DNA of 64,000 nucleotides from Minisyncoccota bacterium (lineage in GTDB: Bacteria; Patescibacteriota; Minisyncoccia; Phycocordibacterales; CAJBRS01). Below are positions 1-53,821 of this stretch, piece by piece. The translations under genes were made by a program, and so were the position numbers. The DNA lies in NCBI GenBank assembly GCA_017881075.1, contig JADGRH010000001.1, forward strand, positions 59,639 through 123,638, given 5' to 3'. The notes under the pieces were generated by a model. The model was given only the letters and a program-made list of their open reading frames with translations, was not told where the DNA came from and did no database searches. Numbering within the stretch: position 1 is the first letter of the stretch; every line of letters begins with the position of its first letter.

Positions 1-3000
1 GCAACCTCATCTATATTCAGGGTGAATGCTAATGGCAACGTCGGCATCGGGACGACGACACCGGGGTATAAGTTACACGTTAAGTCGGCTAGTGATATTC
101 AATTTGCTCTCGACGTTGATAGTGGAGGTAGATACACAAGTCAATATTTTCTGAATAATGGCTCAACTCGTGCGGTTAATTTTTGGGACGAGACGAGTAA
201 TAATTTAACAATTGGAACATCGCACTCGGGCGCAGATTTGATTTTCAATCGGGGATTAAATGCTGCAGCAATGACGATTAGTGGAACTACAGGCAACGTC
301 GGCATCGGGACGACGACGCCTAGTACAAAATTGTCAGTGGCAGGTCAAGGATTCTTTGAAACTTCGACTGAAACCCCAGTGGGTTCTGGAACTCCTGGTC
401 CTGGGATAAGGATTGGGTATCTTACAAGCGGTGATTATGGATATATAACTTCAAGTAATTCTGGTGTAGCGGCTAAAAACTTGGTTTTGCAGCCTGGCGG
501 AACTGGAAATGTGGGTATCAATCAAACTGTGCCATTAGATTTGCTTCATATAGCAGGTGATAACATAGCTACGATAAGATTGCAAAACACAATCTCTGGT
601 GGAAAAACGTACCAAATCGGTTCCGCCATTTCTGGTGTAAGTAATGCAGGTTTTCAAATCTATAATGTTACCAACTCAAGAAGTGAAATGGTAATTGATA
701 CAAACGGCAACGTCGGCATCGGGACGACGGCGCCGGGTGGAAAACTAAGTGTCTCCGGCGGTGCCGCTATTGGCTCATCTTACGCTACCACTGCAGTTTC
801 GGATGGAAATCTCATAGTTTCTGGTTCTTTGGGCATCGGGACGACGACTCCTGGATCTAAACTCGACATCTGGGGAAATCTCAATGTGGCTACTGGCACC
901 ACTCCGGCACTTTTCGTGAATACGGCGACGGGGAATGTGGGAATTGGAGTTATTAATCCCGGTAAACCTTTAGATGTAACGGGAGATATTAGAGCTAGTG
1001 GAAATCTGTTGGCAGGGGGCGGCAATGCTTATCTTTTTAACGGAGGAGTTAGATTAGGAAATTCTTCTGGAGAAATTGATCTTTCTGCTAACGATATGAT
1101 TTACGGACCCAATGCCGGAACAACCAATCATATATTCAAGATCGGAGGAAATGAAATCGCTAGGATAAATTCAACAGGAATCGGCATCGGCACGACAACC
1201 CCAGGAGCAAAGCTACATGCTCTTTCCACCACCGAGCAATTAAGACTAGGATACGATGCTTCAAACTACAATTCCTTCACTGTCGGTTCGACTGGAAGTC
1301 TCACAGTCGCCGCTGTAGGAACTAATCCTAATATCACCCTTACACCTGGTGGAACGGGGTATACCATATTGAACGGCAACGTCGGCATCGGAACGACGGC
1401 GCCGGGTCAAAAACTTGATGTGGCAGGAAACATTAATGTTTCAACTAATTCTGCCTATATGTATAACGGCCTGAATGTCATCACCGCATCAACTACATTG
1501 AGTAATTATTTCTTCGGTGGTTCTGGTAACTTAACAATGACTGGAAACGCCAACACCGCCAGTGGTTATCAGGCGCTCTATAGCAACACCACTGGAACCA
1601 CCAACACCGCCAGTGGTTTTCGTGCGCTCTATAGCAACACCACTGGAACCTACAACACCGCCAGTGGTATTAATGCGCTCTATAGCAACACCACTGGAAC
1701 CCGCAACACCGCCAATGGTCTTGGAGCGCTCTATAGCAACACCACTGGAGGCAATAATGCGGGATATGGTATCAACTCTGGCTACGGCCTCACCACTGGG
1801 AACAATAACACCTTAATCGGACCTTCTGATTCTGTGGTCGCTTCATACAATCAGGTTACTACTGGCTCTAACAACATTTCAATCGGCAACAATGTCGCCG
1901 TGGCCAGCCCAACGGCAAGTAATCAATTGAACATTGGTAATCTTATCTATGGTACAGGCTTGAATGGCACGGGAGCGACGATAAGTGGCGGCAACGTCGG
2001 CATTGGGACGATTGCCCCAGACAAAAAACTCGAAGTCAATTTAGGAACATCAGATGCTCTCCGACTCACTTACAACGACTCTGATGGAAGTGCGGCTAAC
2101 TATACGGATTTCAATGTTTCTTCCGTCGGAAGTTTGACCATTGCTCCCACAGGAACTAATCCTAATATTACTCTCACCCCAGGAGGAACGGGGTATACCA
2201 TATTGAACGGCAATGTTGGGATTGGGACGAGCACGCCGACGTTGCCATTGGTTGTTAACGGCAAAATTATGAGCTATGGGAACAGTACTAACCAGATTAC
2301 TATGTCACCGGCGGGCAATGGCGTAGACAGTTACGCTCATTTGCAAATATTCAACACCGCAGGGTATGGTCAGGGCTATTTGGATTTTTATACCTATCCC
2401 GGCCAGGGTCTGGGTACACCTACGGTAAGATGGCGGGGCGTTGACCTCGGCAGCTACACCGGTGGCCACGTATTCTCGGCTTCCGCCGCCTCGCAGAACG
2501 GCGCTTCCACGGATGTCTTATTCGTTGGAAATACCGGAGCTACTGGCGTACTTACTAATCATTTTGGCGTAGGTGTGTTAACTAACGCGCCAGTATCGGC
2601 GTTGGATGTTAACGGCGGGGTAAGCATCGGTTCATACGCCGCTGTTAACGCGGCCCCGAGCAACGGGTTAATTGTCAGTGGCAACGTCGGCATCGGGACG
2701 ACGACACCAGGATTTAATCTTCAGGTTGCAGGTACTGGAGTTTCAGCGGCATTTGGGGCGGCGGCAAATAATAACGGAGCGGGGGTTGCTTTCTTGGGGT
2801 CAAGCACTGGCAAAAATTTCTTTATCGGTAATCAATATAATATAGGTGGCGCTTTGGAGATTACGCCATCGACTGCCAATGGCGGTTCCACTTTCACGAC
2901 GCCTGTTGTCACAATTTTAAGCACCGGCAACGTCGGCATCGGGACGACGGCGCCAGGCACCAAACTGGAAGTGGTTGGTACGGCTTCTTCTACTGGTTTG

Positions 3001-6000
3001 CAGGTTAATGGCAACGGAGCAATCACAGGAACGATAAGTGCACCAACTTTTGTAGCTACCACAAACAATATCGCGTTCCTTTCACTAAAATCACTTTCTT
3101 CTACAATTGGAGTGGGAGTTACAAATGGAGATGTTCTTTCATTTGACTGGGGCGGAATATATCCAAAGGGGTATCAATTCAGAACATCGGCGACACAGGG
3201 GATTAATATAGATAGTTCAGGCAACGTCGGCATCGGGACGACGGCGCCAGGGGCATCTTTGCAAGTTGCTGGCACTGGTATATGGTCTAGCGTTTACGGT
3301 TTTTCTGCCGGTGGGAACGCGCCACTTGCAGTTGGCACAGCAGTACTTCGTACGGGTAATGACTTCCGTATTCAGGACGATGGTAGTTTTAAAATAAATC
3401 AAAGTGGCGCGGCGGCATTCCTGACAATATTAAACACCGGCAACGTCGGCATCGGCACGACGGCACCTAGGGAAAAACTTGATGTTGCGGGAAATATCAC
3501 CACGGATTGGGCAGACCGCTTCATTGGAACTGAATATCAAGATGGCTCTACTTACAGAATGGGTATGAAAGTAGTTACTTCAGATAGAGATTTGCAGATA
3601 ATTAACAAGAGCGCAGGAGAGAATTTTTCGGGAATTTCCTTTCATACGGGGACTGGTCCAACGGAGCGTATGAGAATTGATAAGGGCGGCAACGTCGGCA
3701 TCGGGACGACGAATCCTGGAAACAAGTTAGTTGTGAGCGGAGCCGGTTATACTTATGCAGAGGTAGATGCAAGTTCGAGCAGCGGAACATATTCCGGAGG
3801 TTATCGTGCATATAATGATGTCGGGGCACAGGTATTATTGGATATTTATGCCAGCTCCAGTGTGGGCACATATCTAGGCCAGCCTCTTTCTAATCTTGTA
3901 AGGTTAACGGATTATAGCGGTTCAAGCGGTATTGCCATAGGCACATACACAAATACTCCGCTCACGTTAGGCACCAATAATTCGGCAAGGTTGGTAATCA
4001 ATGGTGCAGGCAACGTCGGCATCGGGACGACGGCACCGAGTGCGAAGTTACAAGTAAATGTAGCCAGTGGGTATGCAAATACTTGGTGGTCAAATGATAG
4101 TGTAACTACTCCATTTAGCGCTATTTACGGAGCTCACGTTGTTGGGTCATTCGGTCAAAATTATTCAACGGGTGGAGGTGCTGATTTTGCTGGATTTAGT
4201 CACGCAAATAACGAAGTCGGGGTGGAATTTGACGGATATGTAGGGGGAACTAGTCCTACAGCACCTGCACTTTTATTGGCAGGTTGGAAGTCTAATGGCA
4301 CTACGGGTGCTTCGGCGATGAGTGGAACAGATATTATTGCGCAGATTGCGGCTGGTGCGTCTCCTGTTGTGACAGTTCAAGCAAACGGCAACGTCGGCAT
4401 CGGGACGACGTCACCTGTCTCAAAATTAGATGTCTCAGTAACTTCACCAGGGTCAACAAACTTTGGTTTAAGTGTGCGGGATTCTACCGTAACCCCAACG
4501 TATGCCAGTAATGCAGATAATCTTTTAACTGTAAGAGGGGCAGGCAGTTCGGTAACTACTTGGAAAGGAAGAATTACTGCAGGTGGAGATAATGTGGAAT
4601 TTCTTATGGGTGAATACAATTCTCTTGCTTGGTTAGGAGCGCATAATGCCGCCCTCAATGCTTGGACTAACATATATATTAACCCTGATGGTGGGTCAAA
4701 TGCATACATTGGAGATTCAGGTGGTGGAGTTAACAATATCCCAGTTCCGATTCTTGCGGTAATTAACAGCACCGGCAACGTCGGTATCGGGACGACGGCG
4801 CCAGATGTAAATCTAGCAATTGGTTCACAGTTACTTGGTGCGCAAGGATTAAGCGGAGCCGTCTTAAACCTTGGTGGTAGTTCCTCTCAAATGCCAGGCA
4901 TAAATATTGGGCAAGACGCTACTCACGCCATAGAGTTTTATTGGATAGGCAATGCGACACCTGGAAGTGCGACTGCTGCGTTGGAAACCTCTGGCTACTT
5001 AAATCCATTTGCTATTAACGGTTCAAAAACAACCATACAAAGTGCGGCTGGAAATGTGATATTGGCGACAGGTGGTGGCAACGTCGGCATCGGGACGACG
5101 GCACCGGGTGGAAAACTAAGCGTGTCCGGCGGTGCAGCTATTGGCTCATCTTACGCTACCACCGCAGTTTCGGATGGAAATCTCATAGTTTCTGGTTCTT
5201 TGGGCATCGGGACGACGGCGCCGGGGTCAAAGATTCAGGCTGTAGGAGGATATATATCAACTTTTGATAACACTGGATACGGACCTGCATTTATGCAAGG
5301 CGCAAGTGGTGTTTCATATTTCGGCAACACCGGGACTTCAAGAATTGCTTTCGGGAACAATACTAATTATGAAAGGATGACGATTTTAGATAACGGCAAC
5401 GTCGGCATCGGGACGACTACTCCGGGTTTTCTTCTCACTGTTGCTGGCACTTCCAACATCACCGGAGCGGCGATATTCGGATCGACTCTAGGAGTTACTG
5501 GTGCAACAACTCTTTCTTCAACTTTGGGCGTCACCGGCCAAACAACTCTGGCGAATGCTTCATCAACGAATCTCACCGTCTCCACTAATTCATATCTTGG
5601 AACTGTGCAGTCAGGAACTTGGAATGGAACGACCATTGCTGTAGCAAACGGAGGCACTGGCCAAACCACATACACTAATGGCCAACTCCTGATTGGTAAC
5701 ACTACCGGCAATACTCTTACAAAAGCAGCTTTGACAGGCACTACAAATCAAGTAGTAGTGACAAATAGCACAGGTTCAATCACTCTTTCCACTCCGCAGG
5801 ATATTGCTACGGCCTCCACTCCAACCTTCGCCTCAACCACTCTTTCAAACTTTACTCTAGGATCCATCCCATTCTTCGGCAGTAGTGGAAAACTGGGTCA
5901 AAACAATGCCAACTTTTTCTGGGATGGTACCAATAACAGATTAGGGATTGGGACATCTACTCCCGATACGCTCCTTACCGTTGCAGGAAACGGAAGATTC

Positions 6001-9000
6001 ACCGGCACCCTCTCCGCTTCAAATCTCTCCGGCACCAACACTGGCGATGTAACTCTAGGAGCAATTGCTGCTACTCCAAACGCAAACGGAGCTTCTCTTT
6101 CCGGGCAAGTCTTAACTTTGCAGCCAGCCTCGACTTCCTTTGGCGGTGTCGTTACAACCGGAACTCAATCGTTTACAGGAGATAAGACCTTTACATCAAA
6201 CTCACTCGCAGCTTTACAAGTTACGGGGAGTAACACAGGAAGAACCTCTATCACTGTTCAAAATACGAACGCATCAGGTAATGCATCATTCTACTTTCAA
6301 AATGATAGAGGTAGCTTCAATTCATACGGAGGCCTTTTGACAGGAGGTTCGTCAGATGTAGGAGGTACTTTATTTGGGCTTGCTCGTGCGGACAGAACCT
6401 TCTTGATAAATGATGGTACTAATGCTCTAGGACTTGCTCTTGGTACTTTGACAGCACAGCCATTGACACTAGGAACGAATAATTTGGCACGGGTCACAAT
6501 TCTAAGTGGTGGTAATGTCGGAATTGGAACGACAGCACCGACCAGCACACTTGAATTATATAGAGGCGATAACAATATCGGGCCAACTCTTACTTTGAAT
6601 AATCCTACTGGAAATGCAGGCACCGCCGGATCAGCAATAGACTTTCTCGGTTATAGCGGAGCGAGCCAGCCGGTTACTAATAGGATTAAAACCATCGACG
6701 ATGGAGCTTATGGCTATCATTTAGCATTTCTCACCAAAGCGGATTCTTCGGGAGGAGCACTTTTTGAAGCAATGAGGATACAAGGAGGCACGGGCAATGT
6801 TGGGATCGCCACCACCACTCCGGGCTTTCCACTTACAGTGACAGGCGCTTCTAATTTCACCGGCGCCCTCAACTTTAACGGCGCCGCTGGATCTTCCGGA
6901 AACATCCTCCAATCAAACGGATCGGGAAGCGCTCCAAGCTGGGTATCAACCACCACACTCGGTACCATTGCGGTAAACCAAGGCGGCACCGGCCAAACTA
7001 CTTATACAAACGGCCAGCTCTTGATCGGAAACACCACCGGAAATACATTAACAAAAGCAACTCTCACGGGCACCGCTAACCAAGTGAATGTTACGAATGG
7101 TGCTGGTTCAATTACCCTTTCTACTCCTCAAAATATTGGTACCACATCCTCTCCCACATTTAACTCTCTCAATATCGCTAATGGATCAACATATAGCGGT
7201 TGGATAGGTAATTTCGGGCTAGGCTCTGACTGGGTTGGATTTACCGCAGATGGAGCGCAAAGTGCTTCAAAGTATGCATTCGAAGCAACGGCATCATATG
7301 GTGAAACTGTTTTTAATGCTAACGGTGGGGGGACATTGCCCTTCATTGATTTTCGATTTTCCAACGGGGGTGTTGAACCTATTACCAGAATATATGGGTC
7401 TGGCGGGCTCTATTTTGGTAGTGTGGCTGGTGCTGCTGACCCCGGTTTACAGAACCTCTCTATCTTTTCTGGAAAACTTGGTGTTGGGGTTCTAACCGCT
7501 TCTGCCAAAATCCACGCCCTTTCCACCACCGAGCAATTAAGACTAGGCTACGATGCTTCCAACTACAATTCCTTTACTGTCGGTTCAACTGGAAGTCTCA
7601 CAGTCGCCGCTGTAGGAACTAATCCTAATATTACCCTCACGCCGGGCGGAACTGGGTATACCATATTGAACGGCAACGTCGGCATCGGGACGACGACGCC
7701 AGGGGCAAAGTTGAGTGTCAAAGGTGGTGGTACTACAACAGGTCTTAACTTCCAAACTACAAACTCTAATAACCTACCTTTGGTCACAATATTAGACTCC
7801 GGCAACGTCGGCATCGGGACGACGACGCCGGGGAATAAACTCCAGATAAATGCTGCTCTTGCCACTGCTTCTGAATCTTTGCTTCGTCTGTCTGGAGGGT
7901 CAACGGGATTTGCCGGGACCAATGATGCAGGCACTGCGTATTCTCTTGTGTTCGATGGTACTGCATATAGTGTTGGTACTGGAGTTGTGCAACGTGATGG
8001 TGCAAAGATTGAGATGGCAAAAGAGGCATCGTGGAACGAAGCCGGTGGTGGCGGCGGTCCGCTTGGAGCATTATTGTTCTACACGAGTGCAGGTTCAATT
8101 GCATCTCCGAAGCTAACGGAAAAAATGAGAATAACAAGTCTCGGCAACGTCGGTATCGGGACGACGGCGCCGGATTCGAAGTTAACTATTTCATCAAATA
8201 CCGCAACCTTACCGTCTGGGGCAGCCACACTTCGTATTGCTGAAGCCGATACCGTGCAGACTAGCGCGGTTATAGACGCTTTTGCTACTAACGGGCTTTT
8301 TAACTTTCGACGGGCCGACACTACGGCGGCAAGCCCCTCGGCGGTCCAGTCTGGTGAAAATTTGGGCGTGTTCGGCGCCGCTGGCTACGGAACCAGTGCT
8401 TATTCCGGCACCCGCGCCCGCGTTGGATTTTTTGCCGATGAGACTTGGACGAATACTGCTAATGGAACATCCATTCGCTTTAGCACTACGCTCAATGGCG
8501 CCGCCACAGCGGGAGGCACGGAACGCATGAGAATAGATAACGCCGGCAATGTCGGAATTGGCACCTCCACCCCGGACCAAGCTCTAGTTGTATCAGGTAC
8601 GGCAAGAGCTACCAACTTACTCGGAGGTGCCACAACTCTTTCAACCGATGCTTCAGGTAACATTATTCGTACTCCATCAGACATTAGTCTCAAGGAAAAC
8701 ATCCAAAATATCGATAGCGCTGATGCTCTAAGCCAGGTTCTAGCCCTTCAAGGAGTAACCTATTTCTGGAAGGACAAGGCGAGATTTGGCACTGCCCAAG
8801 AAATTGGCTTCATCGCCCAGCAAGTCGAACCGATTGTCCCCCAAGTAGTTAAAAGCGGAGGAGCCTACAAATCCCTTAACTATGGTAACTTAACAGCCGT
8901 CCTTGCCAGCGCCATTCAAGAGCAACAAAAACAGATTACAGCCAATGCTTCAACGACGCGGGCCAATGCCTCAAGCACCGCCTCCGCTCTTTCTTCACTG

Positions 9001-9606
9001 GATCTTAGAGTAAGTACCTTAGAGAACCTGGGACCCCAAAGAGGGGGTGGAGGAGTCAGCACTGGAATCTTTGAAGATCTCCTTTCAACACTACAATCCT
9101 TTGGCACCGAAATCGTTGACGGAGTTTCTTATATGAAGAACTTCCTTGCTGAACATCTCACTACCCAGAACTTGACTATAAAAGGCAAAGATATTACGAA
9201 GACAGGATTCACTATTTATGATCGGGCTACCGGCGATCCTATCTGCGTCTATTTTGAGAACGGGATCCAAAAGACTTCCCCAGGCGAGTGTCCCGACAGC
9301 ACAGCTACTTCAACTCCTCCAACAGACACTACCTCCATTGTCTCAGACAACAACCCCCCAATAGATCCCCTCACCGGATCCAGCACTCCTCCGATCTCCG
9401 ATATCGGATCAAATCCTCCTCCAGACCAACCCCCTCCAACACCACCACCCGCCGACCCCACTCCGCCCTCCGATCCCACCTCCTTGATAGCGCCGAGCGC
9501 CCCAACATCACCACCAGCCCCTGATACGTCAGGATCGAATCCTTCTGATTCGACGTCCGCTCCCGCTGATCCGGGCTCGGCTCCTTCCAATGGGGGAGGC
9601 AATTAG
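1..9606 (+). CDS. Giant repetitive surface/fibre-like protein (5'-truncated at window edge; >3194 aa) with C-terminal phage tail-spike-type intramolecular chaperone (peptidase S74-like) domain and Pro/Thr-rich tail
   Basis: Frame 1 is open from nt 1 with no upstream stop, and the ORF-track start at 22 is GTG. The motif GNVGIGTT(T/A)PGxKL recurs about 18 times. Near the C-terminus, 'SDISLKENIQNI...LQGVTYFWKD...IGFIAQQVEPIVPQVV...YGNLTAVLASAIQEQQ' fits the chaperone-of-endosialidase / S74 consensus. The last ~100 aa are P/T/S-rich low complexity. Stop is TAG at 9604-9606. Confidence 0.8.
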   Translation, partial: ATSSIFRVNANGNVGIGTTTPGYKLHVKSASDIQFALDVDSGGRYTSQYFLNNGSTRAVNFWDETSNNLTIGTSHSGADLIFNRGLNAAAMTISGTTGNVGIGTTTPSTKLSVAGQGFFETSTETPVGSGTPGPGIRIGYLTSGDYGYITSSNSGVAAKNLVLQPGGTGNVGINQTVPLDLLHIAGDNIATIRLQNTISGGKTYQIGSAISGVSNAGFQIYNVTNSRSEMVIDTNGNVGIGTTAPGGKLSVSGGAAIGSSYATTAVSDGNLIVSGSLGIGTTTPGSKLDIWGNLNVATGTTPALFVNTATGNVGIGVINPGKPLDVTGDIRASGNLLAGGGNAYLFNGGVRLGNSSGEIDLSANDMIYGPNAGTTNHIFKIGGNEIARINSTGIGIGTTTPGAKLHALSTTEQLRLGYDASNYNSFTVGSTGSLTVAAVGTNPNITLTPGGTGYTILNGNVGIGTTAPGQKLDVAGNINVSTNSAYMYNGLNVITASTTLSNYFFGGSGNLTMTGNANTASGYQALYSNTTGTTNTASGFRALYSNTTGTYNTASGINALYSNTTGTRNTANGLGALYSNTTGGNNAGYGINSGYGLTTGNNNTLIGPSDSVVASYNQVTTGSNNISIGNNVAVASPTASNQLNIGNLIYGTGLNGTGATISGGNVGIGTIAPDKKLEVNLGTSDALRLTYNDSDGSAANYTDFNVSSVGSLTIAPTGTNPNITLTPGGTGYTILNGNVGIGTSTPTLPLVVNGKIMSYGNSTNQITMSPAGNGVDSYAHLQIFNTAGYGQGYLDFYTYPGQGLGTPTVRWRGVDLGSYTGGHVFSASAASQNGASTDVLFVGNTGATGVLTNHFGVGVLTNAPVSALDVNGGVSIGSYAAVNAAPSNGLIVSGNVGIGTTTPGFNLQVAGTGVSAAFGAAANNNGAGVAFLGSSTGKNFFIGNQYNIGGALEITPSTANGGSTFTTPVVTILSTGNVGIGTTAPGTKLEVVGTASSTGLQVNGNGAITGTISAPTFVATTNNIAFLSLKSLSSTIGVGVTNGDVLSFDWGGIYPKGYQFRTSATQGINIDSSGNVGIGTTAPGASLQVAGTGIWSSVYGFSAGGNAPLAVGTAVLRTGNDFRIQDDGSFKINQSGAAAFLTILNTGNVGIGTTAPREKLDVAGNITTDWADRFIGTEYQDGSTYRMGMKVVTSDRDLQIINKSAGENFSGISFHTGTGPTERMRIDKGGNVGIGTTNPGNKLVVSGAGYTYAEVDASSSSGTYSGGYRAYNDVGAQVLLDIYASSSVGTYLGQPLSNLVRLTDYSGSSGIAIGTYTNTPLTLGTNNSARLVINGAGNVGIGTTAPSAKLQVNVASGYANTWWSNDSVTTPFSAIYGAHVVGSFGQNYSTGGGADFAGFSHANNEVGVEFDGYVGGTSPTAPALLLAGWKSNGTTGASAMSGTDIIAQIAAGASPVVTVQANGNVGIGTTSPVSKLDVSVTSPGSTNFGLSVRDSTVTPTYASNADNLLTVRGAGSSVTTWKGRITAGGDNVEFLMGEYNSLAWLGAHNAALNAWTNIYINPDGGSNAYIGDSGGGVNNIPVPILAVINSTGNVGIGTTAPDVNLAIGSQLLGAQGLSGAVLNLGGSSSQMPGINIGQDATHAIEFYWIGNATPGSATAALETSGYLNPFAINGSKTTIQSAAGNVILATGGGNVGIGTTAPGGKLSVSGGAAIGSSYATTAVSDGNLIVSGSLGIGTTAPGSKIQAVGGYISTFDNTGYGPAFMQGASGVSYFGNTGTSRIAFGNNTNYERMTILDNGNVGIGTTTPGFLLTVAGTSNITGAAIFGSTLGVTGATTLSSTLGVTGQTTLANASSTNLTVSTNSYLGTVQSGTWNGTTIAVANGGTGQTTYTNGQLLIGNTTGNTLTKAALTGTTNQVVVTNSTGSITLSTPQDIATASTPTFASTTLSNFTLGSIPFFGSSGKLGQNNANFFWDGTNNRLGIGTSTPDTLLTVAGNGRFTGTLSASNLSGTNTGDVTLGAIAATPNANGASLSGQVLTLQPASTSFGGVVTTGTQSFTGDKTFTSNSLAALQVTGSNTGRTSITVQNTNASGNASFYFQNDRGSFNSYGGLLTGGSSDVGGTLFGLARADRTFLINDGTNALGLALGTLTAQPLTLGTNNLARVTILSGGNVGIGTTAPTSTLELYRGDNNIGPTLTLNNPTGNAGTAGSAIDFLGYSGASQPVTNRIKTIDDGAYGYHLAFLTKADSSGGALFEAMRIQGGTGNVGIATTTPGFPLTVTGASNFTGALNFNGAAGSSGNILQSNGSGSAPSWVSTTTLGTIAVNQGGTGQTTYTNGQLLIGNTTGNTLTKATLTGTANQVNVTNGAGSITLSTPQNIGTTSSPTFNSLNIANGSTYSGWIGNFGLGSDWVGFTADGAQSASKYAFEATASYGETVFNANGGGTLPFIDFRFSNGGVEPITRIYGSGGLYFGSVAGAADPGLQNLSIFSGKLGVGVLTASAKIHALSTTEQLRLGYDASNYNSFTVGSTGSLTVAAVGTNPNITLTPGGTGYTILNGNVGIGTTTPGAKLSVKGGGTTTGLNFQTTNSNNLPLVTILDSGNVGIGTTTPGNKLQINAALATASESLLRLSGGSTGFAGTNDAGTAYSLVFDGTAYSVGTGVVQRDGAKIEMAKEASWNEAGGGGGPLGALLFYTSAGSIASPKLTEKMRITSLGNVGIGTTAPDSKLTISSNTATLPSGAATLRIAEADTVQTSAVIDAFATNGLFNFRRADTTAASPSAVQSGENLGVFGAAGYGTSAYSGTRARVGFFADETWTNTANGTSIRFSTTLNGAATAGGTERMRIDNAGNVGIGTSTPDQALVVSGTARATNLLGGATTLSTDASGNIIRTPSDISLKENIQNIDSADALSQVLALQGVTYFWKDKARFGTAQEIGFIAQQVEPIVPQVVKSGGAYKSLNYGNLTAVLASAIQEQQKQITANASTTRANASSTASALSSLDLRVSTLENLGPQRGGGGVSTGIFEDLLSTLQSFGTEIVDGVSYMKNFLAEHLTTQNLTIKGKDITKTGFTIYDRATGDPICVYFENGIQKTSPGECPDSTATSTPPTDTTSIVSDNNPPIDPLTGSSTPPISDIGSNPPPDQPPPTPPPADPTPPSDPTSLIAPSAPTSPPAPDTSGSNPSDSTSAPADPGSAPSNGGGN
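1561..1800 (+). repeat. In-frame tandem repeat of a ~60-nt unit (about 4 copies), encoding NTASG(Y/F/I)xALYSNTTGTxNTASG, inside the giant gene
   Basis: 'caccgccagtggt...gcgctctatagcaacaccactggaacc' is visibly repeated at 1553-1612, 1613-1672, 1673-1732 and 1733-1790. Confidence 0.8.
9391..9412. repeat. REP-type palindrome TCCGATATCGGA (family 1), embedded in the 3' coding region of the giant gene (encodes PISDIGS)
   Basis: Perfect 12-nt palindrome tccgatatcgga preceded by the partial duplicate tccgatc. The same core recurs at 10438-10449 and 10520-10531. Confidence 0.7.
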
Positions 9607-9736: not shown

Positions 9737-9762
9737 TTAATCTACGCTCCGATCTCCGATGT
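9737..9762. repeat. REP-type near-palindrome (tccgatgtcgga variant of family 1) overlapping the 3' end of the RAYT gene
   Basis: 'gctccgatctccgatgtcggatcgaattc' has the same core as the other family-1 copies with a central 2-nt change. It encodes the RAYT C-terminus ...PTSEIGA. Confidence 0.6.
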
Positions 9763-10428
9763 CGGATCGAATTCATCAAATGTTTTGGCAGGACTTGTGT
9801 CTACAAAATGCTTGTACTCTTCTTTGTTTTTAAATTGGTCAAGAATGAGATCTGTTTTTAGAAGTTCACCCCATCGATTTTCTCCAATATAGTCTTGATA
9901 ACTTGACCAAGGGTAAAAATGCTCCTTGTCCTTCCACCCCGGCAATTCTCGTGCGTTTCTATGAATATAAGCGGAAAGGTGAAGCAACTGAGTATTGTCT
10001 GCAATCAGGACACTCTTGAAAGCTCCCTGAAATAGGTGCCCGATATGAAGATCTTTATATTTTTCATTATTATATTTTGTAGCGGAGATTATAATTCTTT
10101 GTAAATATTTTGATAAAGCTCCATCTTTTTTCCCTGTCGCACTTAGATGAAAGTGATTTGGCATTAAGCCGAATGAGTGAAGCTCCACAGTACGCGAGGC
10201 GACGATCTCCGAAATGATTTTCTTGCTGACCTGGAATTTCCTATGCTTCTCAAAGTATTTTACATATTGAGATAGGTGGCTAAACTTAATCGGAGACTGG
10301 AAAAATAGTATAGTAAAAAGAAAGCGAATATAATCGCGATTATCGTGGAAAATAATTTGCTTATTATTGCCTCTGCTAAGGAGATGAAATACTTCACCCG
10401 CGGCCAAGTTGTCTTTTCTATATGGCAT
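9742..10428 (-). CDS. REP-associated tyrosine transposase (RAYT; IS200/IS605-like HUH transposase)
   Basis: HUH motif 'LMPNHFHL', size about 228 aa, conserved Tyr-containing C-terminal region, flanked on both sides by family-1 REP palindromes. Confidence 0.75.
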   Translation of the reverse strand: MPYRKDNLAAGEVFHLLSRGNNKQIIFHDNRDYIRFLFTILFFQSPIKFSHLSQYVKYFEKHRKFQVSKKIISEIVASRTVELHSFGLMPNHFHLSATGKKDGALSKYLQRIIISATKYNNEKYKDLHIGHLFQGAFKSVLIADNTQLLHLSAYIHRNARELPGWKDKEHFYPWSSYQDYIGENRWGELLKTDLILDQFKNKEEYKHFVDTSPAKTFDEFDPTSEIGA

Positions 10429-10598: not shown

Positions 10599-11624
10599 AT
10601 GAGCAAAATACGAGTGGCAATAAACGGAGCGGGAAGGATTGGGCGGGCATTTTACAAGGTGGCAAGCAAGCGGCCGGAAGTGGAGATCGTGGCCATCAAT
10701 GACGTGGGTGACATCAATAATATTGCCTATCTTTTTAAATATGACAGTGTCTATGGGCGAAGTGGTCTGGATATTAAAGTTGCTAATGATCAGAGAAGTT
10801 TAAATATAGACGGTAAGAGCGTAGCTTATCTCAGTGAGAAAGATCCAGCCCTGCTTCCGTGGAAGGATTTGAATATTGACGTAGTAGTTGAATCTACAGG
10901 CTTTTTCACTAGTTTTGAAAAATCAAAACCGCATCTTGATGCTGGAGCGAAGAGAGTGGTGATAACCGCGCCAGTCAAAGAAGACGCTTCGGCTGGCGCA
11001 CCGACGGTCTTGATGGGAATCAACGAAGGTGAGCTAAAGAATTCCAAGATAAGTTCGAACGCTTCCTGCACCACTAACTCCGCCAGTCCGATCTTGGCAA
11101 TACTTGACGAAACCATAGGAGTTGAAAAAGCAATATTGACAACAGTGCACGGATACACGGCCAGTCAATCAATTGTGGACGGGCCGAATAAAAAAGATTG
11201 GAAAGAGGGCCGAGCGGCGGCACAAAATATCGTGCCGACTTCCACCGGCTCGGCCATTGCCGTAGCCAAAGCCCTGACACAGTTTAAAAATAAGTTTGAT
11301 GGCATTTCCATGCGAGTGCCGGTTCCGGCAGGATCCATTGCCGATATCACTTTTATTGCAAAGCGAAACACCACTGTTGAAGAGGTTAATTCTATTTTAA
11401 AAAAGGCGGCAACCGATCCCCGCTGGCAGAAAATTTTCACCGTGACCGAAGAGCAGATTGTCTCCACTGATATTATCGGAGCTCCTCACGCCGCTATTGC
11501 TGATCTTGGACTGACTCGGGTAGTTGATAATAATCTGGTGAAAGTGCTGTCCTGGTATGACAATGAGATGGGGTACACTTACTCGTTGGTAGAGCATGTA
11601 ATAGAAGCAGGAAAGTATCTATGA
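10599..11624 (+). CDS. gap: Glyceraldehyde-3-phosphate dehydrogenase
   Basis: N-terminal NAD-binding 'INGAGRIGR', catalytic 'SNASCTTNS', GAPDH-typical length (341 aa). Its stop overlaps the rpiB start (ATGA). Confidence 0.9.
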   Translation: MSKIRVAINGAGRIGRAFYKVASKRPEVEIVAINDVGDINNIAYLFKYDSVYGRSGLDIKVANDQRSLNIDGKSVAYLSEKDPALLPWKDLNIDVVVESTGFFTSFEKSKPHLDAGAKRVVITAPVKEDASAGAPTVLMGINEGELKNSKISSNASCTTNSASPILAILDETIGVEKAILTTVHGYTASQSIVDGPNKKDWKEGRAAAQNIVPTSTGSAIAVAKALTQFKNKFDGISMRVPVPAGSIADITFIAKRNTTVEEVNSILKKAATDPRWQKIFTVTEEQIVSTDIIGAPHAAIADLGLTRVVDNNLVKVLSWYDNEMGYTYSLVEHVIEAGKYL

Positions 11625-12124
11625 AAATTTATCTTGCCTCAGATCACGCCGGTTTTAAATTAAAAGACATACTTACTCCTTTCATTAAGGAGTTGGGATA
11701 CGAGGTATTGGATCTGGGAGCATTCACCTACAAAGCGGGGGATGATTATCCTGATTATATTAAACTGGCGGCAGAAAAAGTCTCGGAAGATCCGGAAAAT
11801 GGTAAGGCTATTATTTTGGGAGCTTCCGGTGAAGGGGAGGCGATCGTTGCCAATAAATATAGGGGTGTTCGTGCAACTGTTTATTACGGAGGTAATAGAG
11901 AAATCATCAAGCTTTCTCGTCATGATAATGATTCAAATATCCTGTCCCTAGGGGCCAGATTTCTAAATGAAAAAGAAGCAAAGGAAATGGTTAAATTATG
12001 GCTTGGCGCTAAATTTTCAGAGGAGGAGACAAGACATGTCCGCCGTATAAAGAAAATAGCCGAAATCGAAAAAGTGGCTGGGAAAGGCAAAAAGACAAAA
12101 CTTCGAAAGTTTTTAAGATTTTAA
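11621..12124 (+). CDS. rpiB: Ribose-5-phosphate isomerase B (RpiB/LacAB family) with Lys-rich C-terminal tail
   Basis: 'MKIYLASDHAGFKLKD...' N-terminus and overall RpiB-like pattern. Translationally coupled to gap. Confidence 0.75.
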   Translation: MKIYLASDHAGFKLKDILTPFIKELGYEVLDLGAFTYKAGDDYPDYIKLAAEKVSEDPENGKAIILGASGEGEAIVANKYRGVRATVYYGGNREIIKLSRHDNDSNILSLGARFLNEKEAKEMVKLWLGAKFSEEETRHVRRIKKIAEIEKVAGKGKKTKLRKFLRF

Positions 12125-12129
12125 ATTGA

Positions 12130-12804
12130 ATGGAGATTCTTCCTGCAATAATGCCCGAAAGTTATGACGACCTGCGCGATAAACTGGCCGAGGTCTCAAC
12201 TTTGGTGACGGTCGTCCAGATAGATGTTATGGACGGCCGGTTCGTGGAATCAAAGAGCTGGCCATACAATCTGCATGGCACTGATACTGATTTTAGTAAG
12301 ATTTTACATGAAGATGAGGGCTTGCCGTTTTGGGATAGGCTGGATTTTGAAATTGATTTAATAGTGGAAGATCCACAGCAACAGGTGGAGAAATGGATGA
12401 AGGCTGGCGCCTCTAGGCTGGTAATTCATATTGAAAGTATTAAAGATGATGCTGTCAGTTTGCTTGAAGAAGTGAAGAGGGGTGAAGTTGGAGTAGGTCT
12501 TGCTTTGGATATGGACACCGATGTTGAAGAGGTGTTACCGTTTTTAGATTATGTGGACTTTGTGCAGTTGATGGGGATCGACCACGATGGTTTTCAGGGC
12601 GCCCCTTTTGACCAGAAAGTGCTTGAGAAAATAAAGAGATTGAAAGAGGAGTCGCCGTCGACATTGATTAGTGTCGACGGCGGAGTCAATTTAGAGACGG
12701 CGCCCGCTTTAATAGAGGCGGGCGCCGACCGACTGATCATCGGCTCAGCTATTTTTGAGAGTGGAGATATTGAGGGCGCTATAACCGATTTTGAGAGTTT
12801 ATAG
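12130..12804 (+). CDS. rpe: Ribulose-phosphate 3-epimerase-like protein
   Basis: 'VVQIDVMDGRFV' metal-binding signature of RPE, TIM-barrel-size protein (224 aa), located in the pentose-phosphate cluster. Confidence 0.6.
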   Translation: MEILPAIMPESYDDLRDKLAEVSTLVTVVQIDVMDGRFVESKSWPYNLHGTDTDFSKILHEDEGLPFWDRLDFEIDLIVEDPQQQVEKWMKAGASRLVIHIESIKDDAVSLLEEVKRGEVGVGLALDMDTDVEEVLPFLDYVDFVQLMGIDHDGFQGAPFDQKVLEKIKRLKEESPSTLISVDGGVNLETAPALIEAGADRLIIGSAIFESGDIEGAITDFESL

Positions 12805-12908
12805 CATCGTCATAAGCGGAACCTACCGCTTTAAAACAGACTAAGACTTGGGCAAACGCCCCGGAGTGGTCTGTTTTAAGGCGCGTAGGTGAGCATTATG
12901 ACGATGAT
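12804..12908. repeat. ~100-nt imperfect palindromic element between rpe and tkt
   Basis: Outer arms atcgtcataa (12804-12813) / ttatgacgat (12896-12905). Inner arms aaaacagac / gtctgtttt and cctaccgc / gcgcgtagg. No coding potential on the forward strand. Confidence 0.5.
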
Positions 12909-12925
12909 AATAGTATAATTGAATT

Positions 12926-13792
12926 ATGTCTTTAACCGACAAAGAGATCCAACATTTAGAAGAAAAAGCGAACGACATCCGTCTTTCTATCATTGAAATG
13001 CTCATTGAAGCCGGCTCCGGCCACACCGCTGGCCCTCTCGGTATGGCCGACATTTTCACTGCTCTTTATTTTCAAATCTTAAATCACGACCCGAAAAAGC
13101 CAGACTGGCCGGAAAGGGATCGATTGGTCTTATCAAATGGCCACATCTGCCCGGTTCTATATTCCACCATGGCTCATTCAGGTTATTTTCCGGTGGAAGA
13201 ATTAAAGACTCTGCGTAAATTTGGCTCCCGTCTCCAAGGTCATCCCCATAGAGATTTTCTTCCATATCTTGAAAATAGTTCCGGCCCACTCGGATCAGGT
13301 CTTTCGCAAGCCACTGGTATGGCCCTTGCCGATAGAATTGATCGCGGTGATAGCAATGATCGCTACATTTATTGCCTGATGAGTGATGGGGAATTGGATG
13401 CCGGAAATAGTTGGGAGGGAGCGATGCTTGCCGGCAAGGAGAAATTGAGAAACCTGATCGCCATCGTTGACCGCAATAATATTCAGATAGACGGCTTTAC
13501 CGAAGACATCATGCCACTTGAAAATCTCCGAGCTCGTTGGGAGGCTTGGAATTGGCACGTGCTCGAGATAGACGGCCACAATTTCAATGAGATCGTTGAT
13601 GCGGTCGGTGAGGCAAAGGCTGTTTTTGAAAAACCAACAGTCATAATTGCCCACACTATTCCCGGCAAAGGAGTAAAGGAATTTGAACGAGACTATCGAT
13701 GGCACGGTAAAGCACCCAATAAAGAAGAAGCGAAAATGGCATTGAACGAATTACGAACATTAGGAGGAAAAATTAAAAGCGAACTTGAATAA
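12926..13792 (+). CDS. Transketolase, N-terminal (TPP-binding) subunit of a split transketolase
   Basis: 'GSGHTAGPLGMADIFTALYF' and 'LSNGH' motifs. 288 aa, matching the N-terminal half only. Overlaps the next gene by 8 nt. Confidence 0.85.
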   Translation: MSLTDKEIQHLEEKANDIRLSIIEMLIEAGSGHTAGPLGMADIFTALYFQILNHDPKKPDWPERDRLVLSNGHICPVLYSTMAHSGYFPVEELKTLRKFGSRLQGHPHRDFLPYLENSSGPLGSGLSQATGMALADRIDRGDSNDRYIYCLMSDGELDAGNSWEGAMLAGKEKLRNLIAIVDRNNIQIDGFTEDIMPLENLRARWEAWNWHVLEIDGHNFNEIVDAVGEAKAVFEKPTVIIAHTIPGKGVKEFERDYRWHGKAPNKEEAKMALNELRTLGGKIKSELE

Positions 13793-14804
13793 TCTAAACC
13801 CCAAAATTTTTGATAAAGATGTAGAACAAGTGCCGATCCGAAAAGGATTCGGCGAAGGGCTTCTCATTGCCGGAGAAAAAAATGAAAATGTTGTCGGGCT
13901 TTGCGCTGATTTAACAGAGTCAACACAAATGCATCTTTTCAAACAAAAATTTCCAAATCGATTCGTTCAAGTCGGTGTGGCCGAGCAGAATTTAGCCACC
14001 GTTGCTTCCGGTATGACCGCTATGGGAAAGATCCCGTTCATATCTTCTTACGCCATGTTCAGTCCCGGCCGCAATTGGGAGCAGATCCGTACCACTATTT
14101 GCTATAACAATGCTAACGTCAAAATTGCCGGCAGCCACGCCGGAGTTTCGGTCGGGCCTGATGGCGGGAGCCATCAGGCCCTTGAAGACATCTCTATTAC
14201 GAGAGTAATCCCTCGAATGACAGTCATTTCGCCTTGTGATGCCATTGAAGCCAGAAAAGCTACTCTCGCCGCGGCCGAGATGGTGGGGCCTGTTTATATC
14301 CGTCTTGCTCGCGAGAAAACTCCCATCATCACTACCGAAGAGACACCTTTTGAGATCGGCCTTGGTCAAATATTTTATGATTCGGATGAGAGGGGTTCGA
14401 CCTCTAAAATTGAGGGGTCGAACCCCTCCAAAAGGGCGGGGATCATTGCCACGGGTGCTCTTGTTTACCAAGCAATAATAGCAGCTAAAGAATTGGAAAA
14501 GGAAGGGATTTCAGTCAAAGTTTTAAATCTTGCCACCATCAAACCACTTGATGAAGCTGCTATCTTGCTCTTGGCAAAAGAGACGAGAGCTATCGTTACT
14601 GTAGAAGAACATCAGATCAATGGGGGAATGGGTTCGGCTGTGGCCGAAAGTTTGGCTAAACATTTTCCAGTACCAGTGGAATTCATTGGTGCCAAAGATA
14701 AGTTTGGTCAGTCCGGAACTCCAGCAGAACTGATTGAGCACTATGGCATGGGCATCGATTCCATCAAAAAAGCAGTGAAGGATGTCTTAGCCCGAAAAAA
14801 ATAA
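13785..14804 (+). CDS. Transketolase, C-terminal (pyrimidine-binding) subunit, carrying an in-frame palindromic insertion
   Basis: 'FVQVGVAEQNLATVASGM...' Pyr-domain signature. Residues ERGSTSKIEGSNPSKR are encoded by a 13-bp perfect inverted repeat. Confidence 0.85.
   Translation: MNNLNPKIFDKDVEQVPIRKGFGEGLLIAGEKNENVVGLCADLTESTQMHLFKQKFPNRFVQVGVAEQNLATVASGMTAMGKIPFISSYAMFSPGRNWEQIRTTICYNNANVKIAGSHAGVSVGPDGGSHQALEDISITRVIPRMTVISPCDAIEARKATLAAAEMVGPVYIRLAREKTPIITTEETPFEIGLGQIFYDSDERGSTSKIEGSNPSKRAGIIATGALVYQAIIAAKELEKEGISVKVLNLATIKPLDEAAILLLAKETRAIVTVEEHQINGGMGSAVAESLAKHFPVPVEFIGAKDKFGQSGTPAELIEHYGMGIDSIKKAVKDVLARKK
14390..14428. repeat. Perfect 13-bp inverted repeat (gaggggttcgacc ... ggtcgaacccctc, 13-nt spacer) lying in frame inside the tkt C-subunit gene
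   Basis: Direct inspection: 14390-14402 is the reverse complement of 14416-14428. Confidence 0.8.
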
Positions 14805-51853: not shown

Positions 51854-53821
51854 ATGCAACAGAACGAACCAACGCAACAGATTTCACATGCTCGCCTTCA
51901 AAAACGCTACCCCACTATGAGGATCGGTGAAGATGAGGATGAGTTCGCAGTAGATCTTGACACCACGAACACTGAGAAAAAAGGGAGACCAGTTAAGGAC
52001 CTGGATCGGGGTGAAAAACAACTTCATTTCGATCATCGGCTTCTCCGATATAATAAACCTGAATTGGCTGCAATGGCCGAACCGCTTTTGCCGGGAGATG
52101 TGAGAGAGACAAGCAATCTCTCCCTTATTTCGGGAAAGACTGGCCATGAAAGCGACGCCAGTCTTCACCGGGTTGTAAAACCCGAAATGGTCGGAGACGG
52201 AGAGAGAGGACGTGCTCTGGCTGAGAGACGACAAAAGAGACGGTTTCCCCGTGAAAATTTCGGCTTAGGAAAGCTCCAAGACGATCACATCAGAATCTAC
52301 GGCAATGCCATTGACGCCTTCGGCTCTCTAGGTCTGGTTAAAGGAAAATTCGAGGAAGGTTTCATTATCGACCTCGACCAGGGTGAAATCGAAGGAAACG
52401 TCGGCGGAAAGAGTGGCTTTAATCACAACACTCACAATATCAGTAATGTCGAGGGCGATGTCACCGGAACAACAGGAAATCCCAGCGGTTTCATAACAAA
52501 GGTAAATGTCACGGATTGGGGTAACTGGGAACAGATACTTCTTCTCTTTTTCGGGTACGATCCGCTTTTGTGGGATGGAACACCTCTTCCCTCTGATCTG
52601 GCTCCTAAGCCAGGAAGCGCCGTTGATCTTTATCGAATCGCCCGAAAAGCATACGAGACTGGCGGTGGAGGTTACACCCCTGAAATCAAGGCACTCTACG
52701 ATCTCTATCGGGTTGAGCTCGCAAGGGTTTGGAAAATCGCCGAAGAGATGCAACTGCCGTGTTATCTCGATCTGGTAACGACCGCCGACTGGAATGCCGG
52801 CGACTGGGTCTATCGAGATTTTTTCGAAAAGTGCCAAGCCAGGTACGAACAAGCGAAAAAAGACGGGGTAGAAAATCCCGTGGAAACACCATTCGTCCTT
52901 GTAAGACACGAAAGTGGCAATCTTCGCACCACGATCGCCTTGTTCTCGGAACTCGACGGTCGTTCTGATGCGGAAAAACAGTGGGAACTGCCGGATGAAC
53001 CAGTCATTCGGAACATCAGCGCGACAGTGCATTGGAGATCAGAGTGGATGCCTCAAGAAGAGATCGAGTGGCGAACGCGAGCTAATGAAAAAATCTCGCG
53101 TAAGAATATTCGTCGTCAGTTGCGTGGCAAAGAACCTTTGCCTCTGTGGCCTGTTGGATCTCTGATTCCAGAATGCGTGCGGCATGGATGGGACGGGGAG
53201 AGGAAGCTCACCCTAAGGCCCATCATAGAGTTTCCTAAACAGCCCGACAGGGAGGTCTGGAACTTTAAGCCGAGATCGGAAAGTGACGAACATTTCCACG
53301 CTCGAATGTTTCGGAAATATAGGATCTGTCCGCGACACCCACCCTTCTGGATTGAGGATTTCTATGTCTCGGTACCAGTCTATGCAGGTACAGGGAAAGT
53401 GAAATACCTCATTTGTCCGAAGATGTTGAAGATGCCGCCCGGTCCGATGCTACACGTTTCTCATGTGCGTGAATTGCTTCATAGGCCAAGAGCTGAAGCT
53501 CTGGCTTATGTGGATCGTCTTCAACCCAAAAAGCCGCAACTCAGCGCTAAAGCGCTTCAGTACATTAAAGGAAAGATGAAACCTTTGCCAAAGGAAGAGC
53601 GAAGAAGTAAAGCCAAACAGAAAACCAAGACTATCCCTCGGATTTCGGAACAACCTCCGAATTTGCCGAAGGAAGTTAATCTTCCTGCTTCAGCTACAAC
53701 TTCAACTTTAGTAGCACCGGCGCCGAATTCTTCCAAAACTCCGCCGGAACCCGAGACCCCAAAGACGGGGGTAATACGACGGCTTGCGGGTGCCGCCGCC
53801 TCCTTCTACATTAGGCAATAG
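51854..53821 (+). CDS. Large (655 aa) orphan protein, first gene of a compositionally distinct island
   Basis: Long ORF with coding-like periodicity and codon usage distinct from its neighbours (more GCC/CGC/GAG/AAG). No recognisable motif. Basic, Lys-rich C-terminal region. Confidence 0.5.
   Translation: MQQNEPTQQISHARLQKRYPTMRIGEDEDEFAVDLDTTNTEKKGRPVKDLDRGEKQLHFDHRLLRYNKPELAAMAEPLLPGDVRETSNLSLISGKTGHESDASLHRVVKPEMVGDGERGRALAERRQKRRFPRENFGLGKLQDDHIRIYGNAIDAFGSLGLVKGKFEEGFIIDLDQGEIEGNVGGKSGFNHNTHNISNVEGDVTGTTGNPSGFITKVNVTDWGNWEQILLLFFGYDPLLWDGTPLPSDLAPKPGSAVDLYRIARKAYETGGGGYTPEIKALYDLYRVELARVWKIAEEMQLPCYLDLVTTADWNAGDWVYRDFFEKCQARYEQAKKDGVENPVETPFVLVRHESGNLRTTIALFSELDGRSDAEKQWELPDEPVIRNISATVHWRSEWMPQEEIEWRTRANEKISRKNIRRQLRGKEPLPLWPVGSLIPECVRHGWDGERKLTLRPIIEFPKQPDREVWNFKPRSESDEHFHARMFRKYRICPRHPPFWIEDFYVSVPVYAGTGKVKYLICPKMLKMPPGPMLHVSHVRELLHRPRAEALAYVDRLQPKKPQLSAKALQYIKGKMKPLPKEERRSKAKQKTKTIPRISEQPPNLPKEVNLPASATTSTLVAPAPNSSKTPPEPETPKTGVIRRLAGAAASFYIRQ

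Follow-up and report, generated by a model that had tools for sequence, protein, structure and literature searches.

How can a gene keep the same 24 nucleotides in copy after copy when the peptide that they encode could be spelled in 24,576 ways? This question is raised by a 64,000-nt stretch of contig JADGRH010000001.1 (assembly GCA_017881075.1, positions 59,639 to 123,638) from a Minisyncoccota bacterium, which is referred to below as the window. Its left edge cuts a giant open reading frame (ORF; 1–9606, + strand, stop at 9606), inside which the 24-nt word GGCAACGTCGGCATCGGGACGACG recurs almost unchanged. The original prediction had described this word and three pairs of long near-identical segments as recombinogenic repeats of this gene, and had read them as the signature of recent intragenic duplication or gene conversion. 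The finding is wider in scope than was held at that time, as it concerns a family of genes in several phyla rather than one gene.

An island of synonymous conservation

With up to three mismatches allowed, 18 copies of the word were found in the giant ORF, 12 of them exact, and none appeared in 100 dinucleotide shuffles. All 18 lie on the + strand between positions 34 and 8166 in the frame of the ORF, every spacing between them is a multiple of 3, and the encoded peptide is GNVGIGTT throughout, save for GNVGIGTI at 1990. The exact copies are cores 1 (34–57), 2 (292–315), 3 (706–729), 6 (2680–2703), 7 (2926–2949), 8 (3220–3243), 10 (3688–3711), 11 (4009–4032), 12 (4387–4410), 14 (5077–5100), 16 (7672–7695) and 17 (7801–7824). 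A single synonymous mismatch is found in cores 4 (1375–1398, GGA), 13 (4774–4797, GGT), 15 (5395–5418, ACT) and 18 (8143–8166, GGT), while core 9 (3439–3462) carries GGC for GGG at the third Gly, which makes it the most duplex-stable synonymous variant of all; core 5 (1990–2013) has three mismatches. The recurrence claimed earlier is therefore borne out, with the positions then given lying within 10 nt of those found here and the copies at 1990, 4774 and 8143 having been overlooked, and the C that had been proposed as an alternative at position 18 of the word is the one present at 3439. Outside ORF 1–9606, the 64-kb window contains neither a copy of the 24-mer at up to three mismatches nor the peptide motif, and no inverted or silent copies.

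Such conservation of DNA far exceeds what the amino acids require, as the earlier reading had also stated. The probability of the exact word per motif is approximately 5e-6 if the codon usage of the rest of the gene is applied, and approximately 4e-6 with that of the 31 other genes in the window, compared with 12 exact words in 18 copies. Two of its codons, GGG and ACG, are minority codons in this genome (12–17%). Directly outside the core, all codons are in use for the Pro, Gly, Lys and Leu residues that are conserved in the same gene, and the Pro three residues downstream is freely encoded by CCG, CCA or CCT. One further copy at 6511–6534 (+ strand) encodes the full GNVGIGTT with five of eight codons off the word (GGT AAT GTC GGA ATT GGA ACG ACA). 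Since this escaped copy keeps the peptide without the word, the protein does not require the canonical spelling.

The same behavior was found within other genes. For 21 ORFs that had been selected by amino-acid sequence, the copies within a gene agreed in codon at a rate of 0.54–0.85 for core codons 0 to +8, against 0.28–0.56 expected from codon usage. Flanking codons matched the expectation, with values of 0.37 versus 0.35 at Pro +9, 0.23 versus 0.25 at Leu +13 and 0.35 versus 0.35 at Val +15, and likewise at Lys +12. The 24 nt coding for GNVGIGTT plus the next codon, approximately 27 nt in total, are an island of concerted synonymous-site evolution within a gene, and outside this island even the codons of equally conserved residues are free.

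The word that is kept is not the same in every gene. In locus L204 (gene on the − strand, 10993–14662), 7 of 12 copies share the private word GGCAACGTCGGGATTGGGACTACG while their flanks are fully diverged; the private words of loci L275 and L075 have GGT at the second Gly and GGA at the third Gly, respectively, again with diverged flanks. The AT-rich viral locus L315 uses GGTAATGTTGGTATAGGTACAACA, with ATA for Ile although its flanks prefer ATT. It is identity between copies that matters, not one fixed sequence. Among 42 ORFs, the share of unchanged codons that are off the gene's word rose from 16% in copies without amino-acid changes to 39% and 48% in copies with one and two changes, and the constraint acts on the whole word as a unit, not on single codons. 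As 79% of the differences among near-canonical copies are located at third positions, these positions decay from a common state and are less constrained than the coding positions. Deviations from the word are AT-ward rather than G<->C at approximately 2:1, which is far less AT-ward than the codon usage of the flanks suggests.

A scan of contigs from one genome per species returned the exact word in at least 120 genome loci. Among the matches listed, these loci belong to many classes of Patescibacteria and to DPANN archaea (Woese-, Pace-, Aenigm- and Nanoarchaeota), and further ones to Elusimicrobia, Omnitrophica, Bacteroidia, Acidobacteria, Bdellovibrionales and others. All of the 200 exact copies listed are in frame in ORFs, and 41 of these ORFs have a GC content at third codon positions (GC3) below 0.40, with a minimum of 0.17. 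The taxonomy of metagenome-assembled genomes may err on short contigs; long archaeal and bacterial contigs also carry the word, and some matches lie on contigs of 150–620 kb.

As a guard against ascertainment bias, metagenome and viral contigs were scanned with the degenerate pattern GGNAAYGTNGGNATHGGNACNACN. In the metagenomes, 27 of 203 motifs were the exact word, compared with 0.025 expected from the codon usage of the host ORFs, and the next commonest spelling occurred 7 times. The word also made up 12 of the 56 motifs in metagenome ORFs with a GC3 of 0.25–0.35, and it was rarer on viral contigs (5 of 238 motifs). Counted by locus, the exact word is present at least once in 16 of 240 and a word within two mismatches in 44 of 240; the 16 range from 34 to 66% GC and share no other nucleotide similarity. 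Where all third positions of a motif were G or C, 32 of 45 motifs were canonical (16 loci), and no other word occurred more than three times. The choice of Gly codons in this sample depends on position, with GGC at 63% and GGG at 3% for the first Gly and GGG at 40% for the third. Across 127 loci, each represented by one exact core, codon choice is scrambled at Ile −4, Pro +9, Lys +12, Leu +13, Val +15 and Gly +17. Cultured phages yielded no exact word, the nearest sequences being cyanophage tail-fibre genes with approximately 88% identity over 33 nt. Since this 24-mer is found amid unrelated flanks in hundreds of genes from distant phyla, it can be concluded that the word did not arise in the gene studied here and that the island of 24 bases characterizes the whole family across phyla. 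No literature report was found of the island or of the peptide, whether as GNVGIGT, NVGIGT or in other forms.

The modular fibre and its long repeats

The ORF at 1–9606 equals the C-terminal 3201 aa of a database protein of 3910 aa (P0001, 100% identity; known from one NCBI contig of 169 kb), the N-terminus of which lies outside the window and contains a hydrophobic segment, LILTLLITGSIFFVLFSLYSNVALA, that by inspection only may be a signal or an anchor. Pfam recognizes a single domain in the giant ORF, the intramolecular chaperone Peptidase_S74 (PF13884, 'chaperone of endosialidase') at aa 2893–2951 (8677–8853, + strand; E = 6.9e-15). It opens with SDISLK (aa 2893; 8677–8694), which fits the SDxxxK catalytic motif of S74 domains as defined in PMC10769870. 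To judge by these matches, the giant protein ends in a self-cleaving S74 chaperone domain, for which self-cleavage is predicted. Behind this domain, the C-terminal end of the protein (9277–9603) is a Pro/Ser/Thr-rich low-complexity tail (PPPDQPPPTPPPADPTPPSDP).

Tail-fibre families of PHROG match along the whole length of the protein with E-values down to 7e-28. The nearest solved structures are the mosaic adhesive trimer (MAT) fibres of Bdellovibrio, with E = 1.5e-17 over 184 aa for 8oml_A. In this alignment, both GNVGIGT motifs fall on LVGIGT and NVGVGV of the 8oml fibre, and EKMRITSLGNVGIGTTAPDSKL and TERMRIDNAGNVGIGTSTPDQAL of the window stand opposite ERMRITGSGLVGIGTPAPAVPL and TEKVVIDQNGNVGVGVGAPTAKM. 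Because the GNVGIGTT-type peptide aligns to solved fibre modules, the repeated peptide is taken to be a known structural element at module boundaries; by this homology, GNVGIGTT-x-P-x-x-K-L is the module-boundary or 'capping loop' element of the solved MAT fibres. The fibre consists of some twenty modules, each opened by this invariant sequence. The gene product is a very long fibre of the phage-tail-fibre or Bdellovibrio MAT type, and is probably secreted and trimeric. The databases hold no close relative of the gene: the sole match at 100% is P0001 itself, which forms a protein cluster with one member, and the closest other homologue is 40% identical over 10% of the length. Named homologues are mostly from Patescibacteria, and none of the fetched loci is related to the giant gene beyond the 24-nt core.

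Self-comparison of the gene returned dozens of matches of 30–70 nt centered on the cores, as well as longer repeats. Pair A (706–846 and 5077–5217, + strand) extends from a full core, core 3 or core 14, to a 15-nt half core of GSLGIGTT (832–846 in the first copy). Over 155 nt (706–860 versus 5077–5231), its copies are 93.5% identical, with a synonymous divergence (dS) of 0.19 and a nonsynonymous divergence (dN) of 0. The likeness begins with the first base of the core (706/5077) and ceases with the last base of the half core (846/5217), and beyond these points the sequences are unrelated. Pair B (1216–1398 and 7513–7695, + strand) is 91.9% identical over 197 nt (1216–1411 versus 7513–7709; dS 0.36, dN 0) and stops at the last base of cores 4 and 16 (1398/7695); a third, older copy with 84–87% identity is located at 2151–2237. 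Three of the four ends of pairs A and B therefore coincide exactly with core edges. The third pair of the original prediction, here pair C (5650–5799 and 6982–7131, + strand, peptide GGTGQTTYTNGQLLIGNTTGNTLTKA in both), is conserved at the amino-acid level only, with 90% amino-acid and 74% nucleotide identity, the same codon at 18 of 45 identical residues, and saturated dS. A peptide that is 90% identical with saturated synonymous sites must be under strong purifying selection. The region of pair C also matches PHROG 31660 (tail fibre).

Consequently, two of the three long pairs that had been claimed at the DNA level were retained and one was lost, as pair C gave no match in the DNA self-comparison. 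This comparison had been proposed together with the claim, and similarity of the synonymously diverged kind, the result named as speaking against it, was found for pair C only. The attribute 'recent' did not hold, since dS values of 0.19 and 0.36 with a dN of 0 mark pairs A and B as old copies under strong purifying selection. Intragenic copying as such was upheld in the form of concerted evolution among the cores and of two module-sized blocks, but not as a recent duplication that gave rise to the 24-mer, the flanks of which are saturated. The view of the repeats as recombinogenic is supported: the ends of the blocks at motif edges are consistent with motif-to-motif recombination, which could alter the fibre in length or composition.

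A tandem array at 1540–1749 (extending to approximately 1799, + strand) comprises 4.1 units of 51 nt with 89% matches and encodes the 17-aa unit ...ALYSNTTGTxNTASG.... It is the second DNA-level repeat in this range and of the classical slippage-prone type, and it was absent from the original prediction. In a related tail-fibre-like gene, two high-GC metagenome contigs with 97–99.6% identity (L139, approximately 4364–4426, and L146, 3727–4196) differ by one extra module of approximately 0.5 kb. This strain pair was considered as a case of breakpoints in cores and rejected, as it is another repeat, DTLAxLSCxxGQIxKxNGTAWxCAAD, that flanks the indel. It is a natural example of module-number polymorphism in such proteins.

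Explanations for the island

The explanation that we favor, and whose correctness we regard as an even call, is a short-range, identity-dependent homogenization of in-frame recombination joints. The constraint on the amino acids fixes 16 of the 24 bases, so that pairing between copies would be feasible, whether through RecA-type strand exchange or, independently of RecA, through template switching or annealing at the replication fork. Repair of the short heteroduplexes within the block would then homogenize the third positions, and a copy that gained more mismatches would leave the exchange and decay. In E. coli, approximately 24 nt is the minimal efficient length for RecA-dependent exchange. 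A crossover from core to core would delete, duplicate or replace whole modules with the frame intact, as all copies are direct and in frame, and the two long near-identical blocks may be such module patches. In addition, a G/C-favoring filter, which could be GC-biased conversion or selection for a strongly annealing joint, would freeze most changes and slow the drift from the ancestral word. The ratio of approximately 2:1 between AT-ward and G<->C deviations is suggestive of such a filter. It may also be the reason why the dominant word has only G or C at its third positions and a near-maximal duplex stability, the word ranking 8th of its synonymous variants by nearest-neighbor stability with the maximum of five CpG steps. 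The long intragenic repeats of the fetched loci together have 72 endpoints, of which 28 fall no more than 12 nt from a core, compared with 8.4 expected, and in locus L020 a 142-nt core-to-core unit is present in four copies with 96–98% identity.

Several points weigh against recombination joints. Exchange at the cores is deduced from sequence patterns, no event having been seen directly, and core endpoints could also arise if only those duplications that respect module boundaries survive selection. Conversion tracts of 24–27 nt with such sharp edges are unusual. From the dS of 0.19–0.36 between the long pairs, it follows that module exchange in this gene is infrequent on a recent timescale. 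Synonymous rates of orthologous cores in diverged contig pairs could be based on one usable aligned core, which is too little data. Most importantly, neutral homogenization does not slow the drift of the word and therefore cannot by itself explain its dominance across phyla, leaving one GC-rich word in Patescibacteria, DPANN, Elusimicrobia and Bacteroidia unaccounted for.

Among the other explanations, recent whole-module duplication as the source of the 24-mer is ruled out by the saturated flanks, in which conserved residues just outside the word have saturated codons. Translational selection acting on single codons, in favor of accuracy or speed in a peptide that is invariant and critical for the structure, would account for the coincidence of the island with invariant residues and for the fact that five of the eight codons end in C (GGC, AAC, GTC, GGC, ATC), C-ending codons being the accurate choice for Asn and Ile in many bacteria. 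We consider it scarcely credible, as GGG and ACG are rare in this genome, the same amino acid takes different codons at the first and the third Gly, and Pro +9 shows no codon preference in spite of being 95–98% conserved; by these three observations, codon optimization is ruled out. Moreover, the private words differ between genes, and synonymous identity collapses once a neighboring residue changes, which independent selection on codons does not predict. Rare and position-specific codons and the unit-like loss of identity together exclude selection codon by codon. Shared ancestry would mean that the family or its modules spread horizontally in recent times, so that the cores have not yet diverged and the copies in this gene are young duplicates. 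Tail-fibre genes are notoriously mobile, the motif occurs on viral contigs (with the canonical word in a few of them), the closest matches in cultured phages are tail-fibre genes of cyanophages, and near-canonical copies differ mostly synonymously, as in decay from a common state. Nevertheless, this is a quite improbable explanation, because conserved residues one to nine codons outside the core are at the codon-usage expectation both within genes and between loci, and such saturated flanks contradict a recent spread of whole modules. The loci that share the word are without any other likeness at the level of megablast, the host ORFs follow codon usages of their own, GC3 being as low as 0.17–0.30, while the core is still GC-rich, and the nearest homologue of the giant gene is as distant as stated above.

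Direct selection on the nucleotide word, be it as a hairpin in mRNA or single-stranded DNA, as a binding site of a conserved factor or as a pacing signal for transcription or translation, has more in its favor and still appears rather unlikely. In support of it are a word common to many phyla with saturated flanks in 127 loci of one core each, its excess in the unbiased metagenomes, and 16 unbiased loci that have the word and no other nucleotide similarity in common. The word is a quasi-palindrome about position 15, in which the third positions 6-24, 9-21 and 12-18 all form C-G pairs; as DNA it folds at -6.2 kcal/mol (z = -2.9), its RNA folding ranks at approximately 640–830 of the synonymous variants (top 3%), and among non-canonical A/T variants complementarity at 9-21 is enriched with an odds ratio of 2.8 (p = 0.002). 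However, with one consensus word taken per locus, covariation is absent at 6-24 (0.22 versus 0.21) and 12-18 (0.25 versus 0.30) and weak at 9-21 (p = 0.03), and the unpredicted pair 9-24 scores higher. The C->T changes in the left arm that wobble would tolerate (102) are no commoner than the disruptive G->A changes in the right arm (113), variants with a more stable fold exist and are rare, and the stem is broken in private words like the one of L204, which are homogenized all the same. Folds in context reach z-scores of just -1.3 to -2.2, and no Rfam match was obtained at the gathering threshold or at E <= 1. The hairpin of CGTCG/CGACG plus C12-G18 was therefore rejected on account of its suboptimal though top-3% fold, inconsistent covariation and missing wobble asymmetry, and it is kept as a weak rival. 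Against direct selection in general stands the prevalence of third-position changes in near-canonical copies, by which the third positions are less constrained than the first two. A more far-reaching proposal would treat the 24-mer as a selected cross-lineage 'standard connector', that is, as a near-strongest annealing sequence encoding GNVGIGTT and a universal recombination signal that would allow in-frame exchange of modules within and between genomes; we consider this unlikely. The word would then be selected to stay the same in Patescibacteria, DPANN archaea, other bacteria and some phages, and identity with a common pool would make the exchange possible.

Gene surroundings and known counterparts

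The genes adjoining the giant ORF are chromosomal housekeeping genes (GAPDH, RpiB, Rpe, a split transketolase, GyrB, MreB, ThrRS and DnaE). The transketolase is divided into N- and C-terminal ORFs at 12926–13792 and 13785–14804, which overlap by 8 nt. The MreB homologue (53961–55424) is unusually long with 487 aa, of which aa 23–377 match MreB_Mbl, and an ORF of 655 aa without a Pfam match is located at 51854–53821. Between 52 and 58 kb, the GC content is raised (0.49–0.51) and the AT skew is unusually strong (0.11–0.26) compared with the rest of the window. An ORF for an IS200-like Y1 transposase (9742–10428, − strand; Y1_Tnp, E = 2.7e-9) lies 136 nt downstream of the stop of the giant gene. 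It has no PHROG match and is the only mobile-element gene in the ORFs scanned, and adjacency is its sole tie to the repeats.

Neither codon usage nor recent duplication nor any annotated RNA explains why synonymous sites are frozen over a sharply bounded 24–27 nt, in as many as two dozen copies of a gene. If the cores are indeed joints, episymbiotic and predatory microbes would have, built into their giant fibre genes, a frame-preserving device for reshuffling host-binding modules, an analogue of phage tail-fibre evolution that is cellular and far larger. If the word is instead selected for itself, it would be a new kind of nucleic-acid signal inside a protein repeat. In either case, it is a concrete, testable sequence and a simple genomic marker of the family, and it may serve the engineering of modular fibres.

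Conserved sites inside the coding sequence of fibre or pilus-tip genes are known from Mu Gin/gix, P1 Cin and R64 Rci/sfx, where inverted sites are acted upon by a dedicated site-specific recombinase. Unlike these, all 18 copies of the present word are direct, and neither a recombinase nor an invertase was found in the 19 neighboring ORFs scanned. No reverse transcriptase was detected in the ORFs scanned either, as would belong to a diversity-generating retroelement; against a retroelement target also speak the differences between the repeats, which are mostly synonymous third-position changes of all kinds, and the cores, which are invariant and not hypervariable. In Neisseria pilE/pilS minicassettes and Borrelia vlsE, variable cassettes are flanked by short segments of conserved DNA, and patch-wise replacement relies on the homology of these segments. 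Pair A resembles such a patch. In contrast to these systems, the 64-kb window contains no silent donor cassettes, all copies are located within one ORF, and with a dS of 0.19–0.36 the patches give no sign of high-frequency switching.

For the protein, the closest counterparts are the MAT fibres of Bdellovibrio bacteriovorus and S74 fibres of phages (8oml, 8on4, 8ol4, 8ond; PMC10769870), to which it has direct sequence homology. Its module '...ERMRI-x-x-x-GNVGIGT-x-x-P-x-x-x-L-x-V' can be aligned with ERMRITGSGLVGIGTPAPAVPLQV and TEKVVIDQNGNVGVGVGAPTAKMDV in the solved fibre. An S74 domain with SDxxxK at the C-terminus is common to both, as is membership of a large mosaic family, and the N-terminal signal peptide that precedes a conserved beta-rich domain in this superfamily may have its counterpart in the hydrophobic segment noted above by inspection only. 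MAT proteins are of approximately 1000 aa, whereas the present one has 3910 aa. Caulton et al. (2024, PMC10769870) described protein structures and a capping-loop consensus, V-G-G/N-pi-x-x-P-x-x-x-L, and the term 'nucleotide' is absent from their main text.

For the DNA, the adhesin genes of T-even phages offer the nearest comparison. According to passages of Trojet et al. (2011, PMC3157838) that cite Tetart et al. (1996, 1998), the tail-fibre adhesin genes of T-even phages undergo genetic exchange in or near their most conserved, glycine-rich motifs. As described there for g37/g38, these glycine-rich motifs or 'His boxes' are short conserved sequences that part variable segments, and exchanges at these sites yield chimeric fibres. 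In the present gene, too, short motifs bracket variable segments, and the endpoints of repeats lie at the motif. Unlike the phage genes, this one is cellular and chromosomal, is approximately 12 kb long and has 18–21 joints. Its conservation is found at synonymous sites, with sharp limits, over 24–27 nt, is homogenized per gene, and involves a word that spans phyla of bacteria and archaea. That the joints recombine is deduced here from sequence, not from crosses. The likeness is one of pattern, a relationship in sequence to gp38 having been neither found nor tested for, and by analogy, the T-even adhesin genes are the closest precedent for the proposed core joints.

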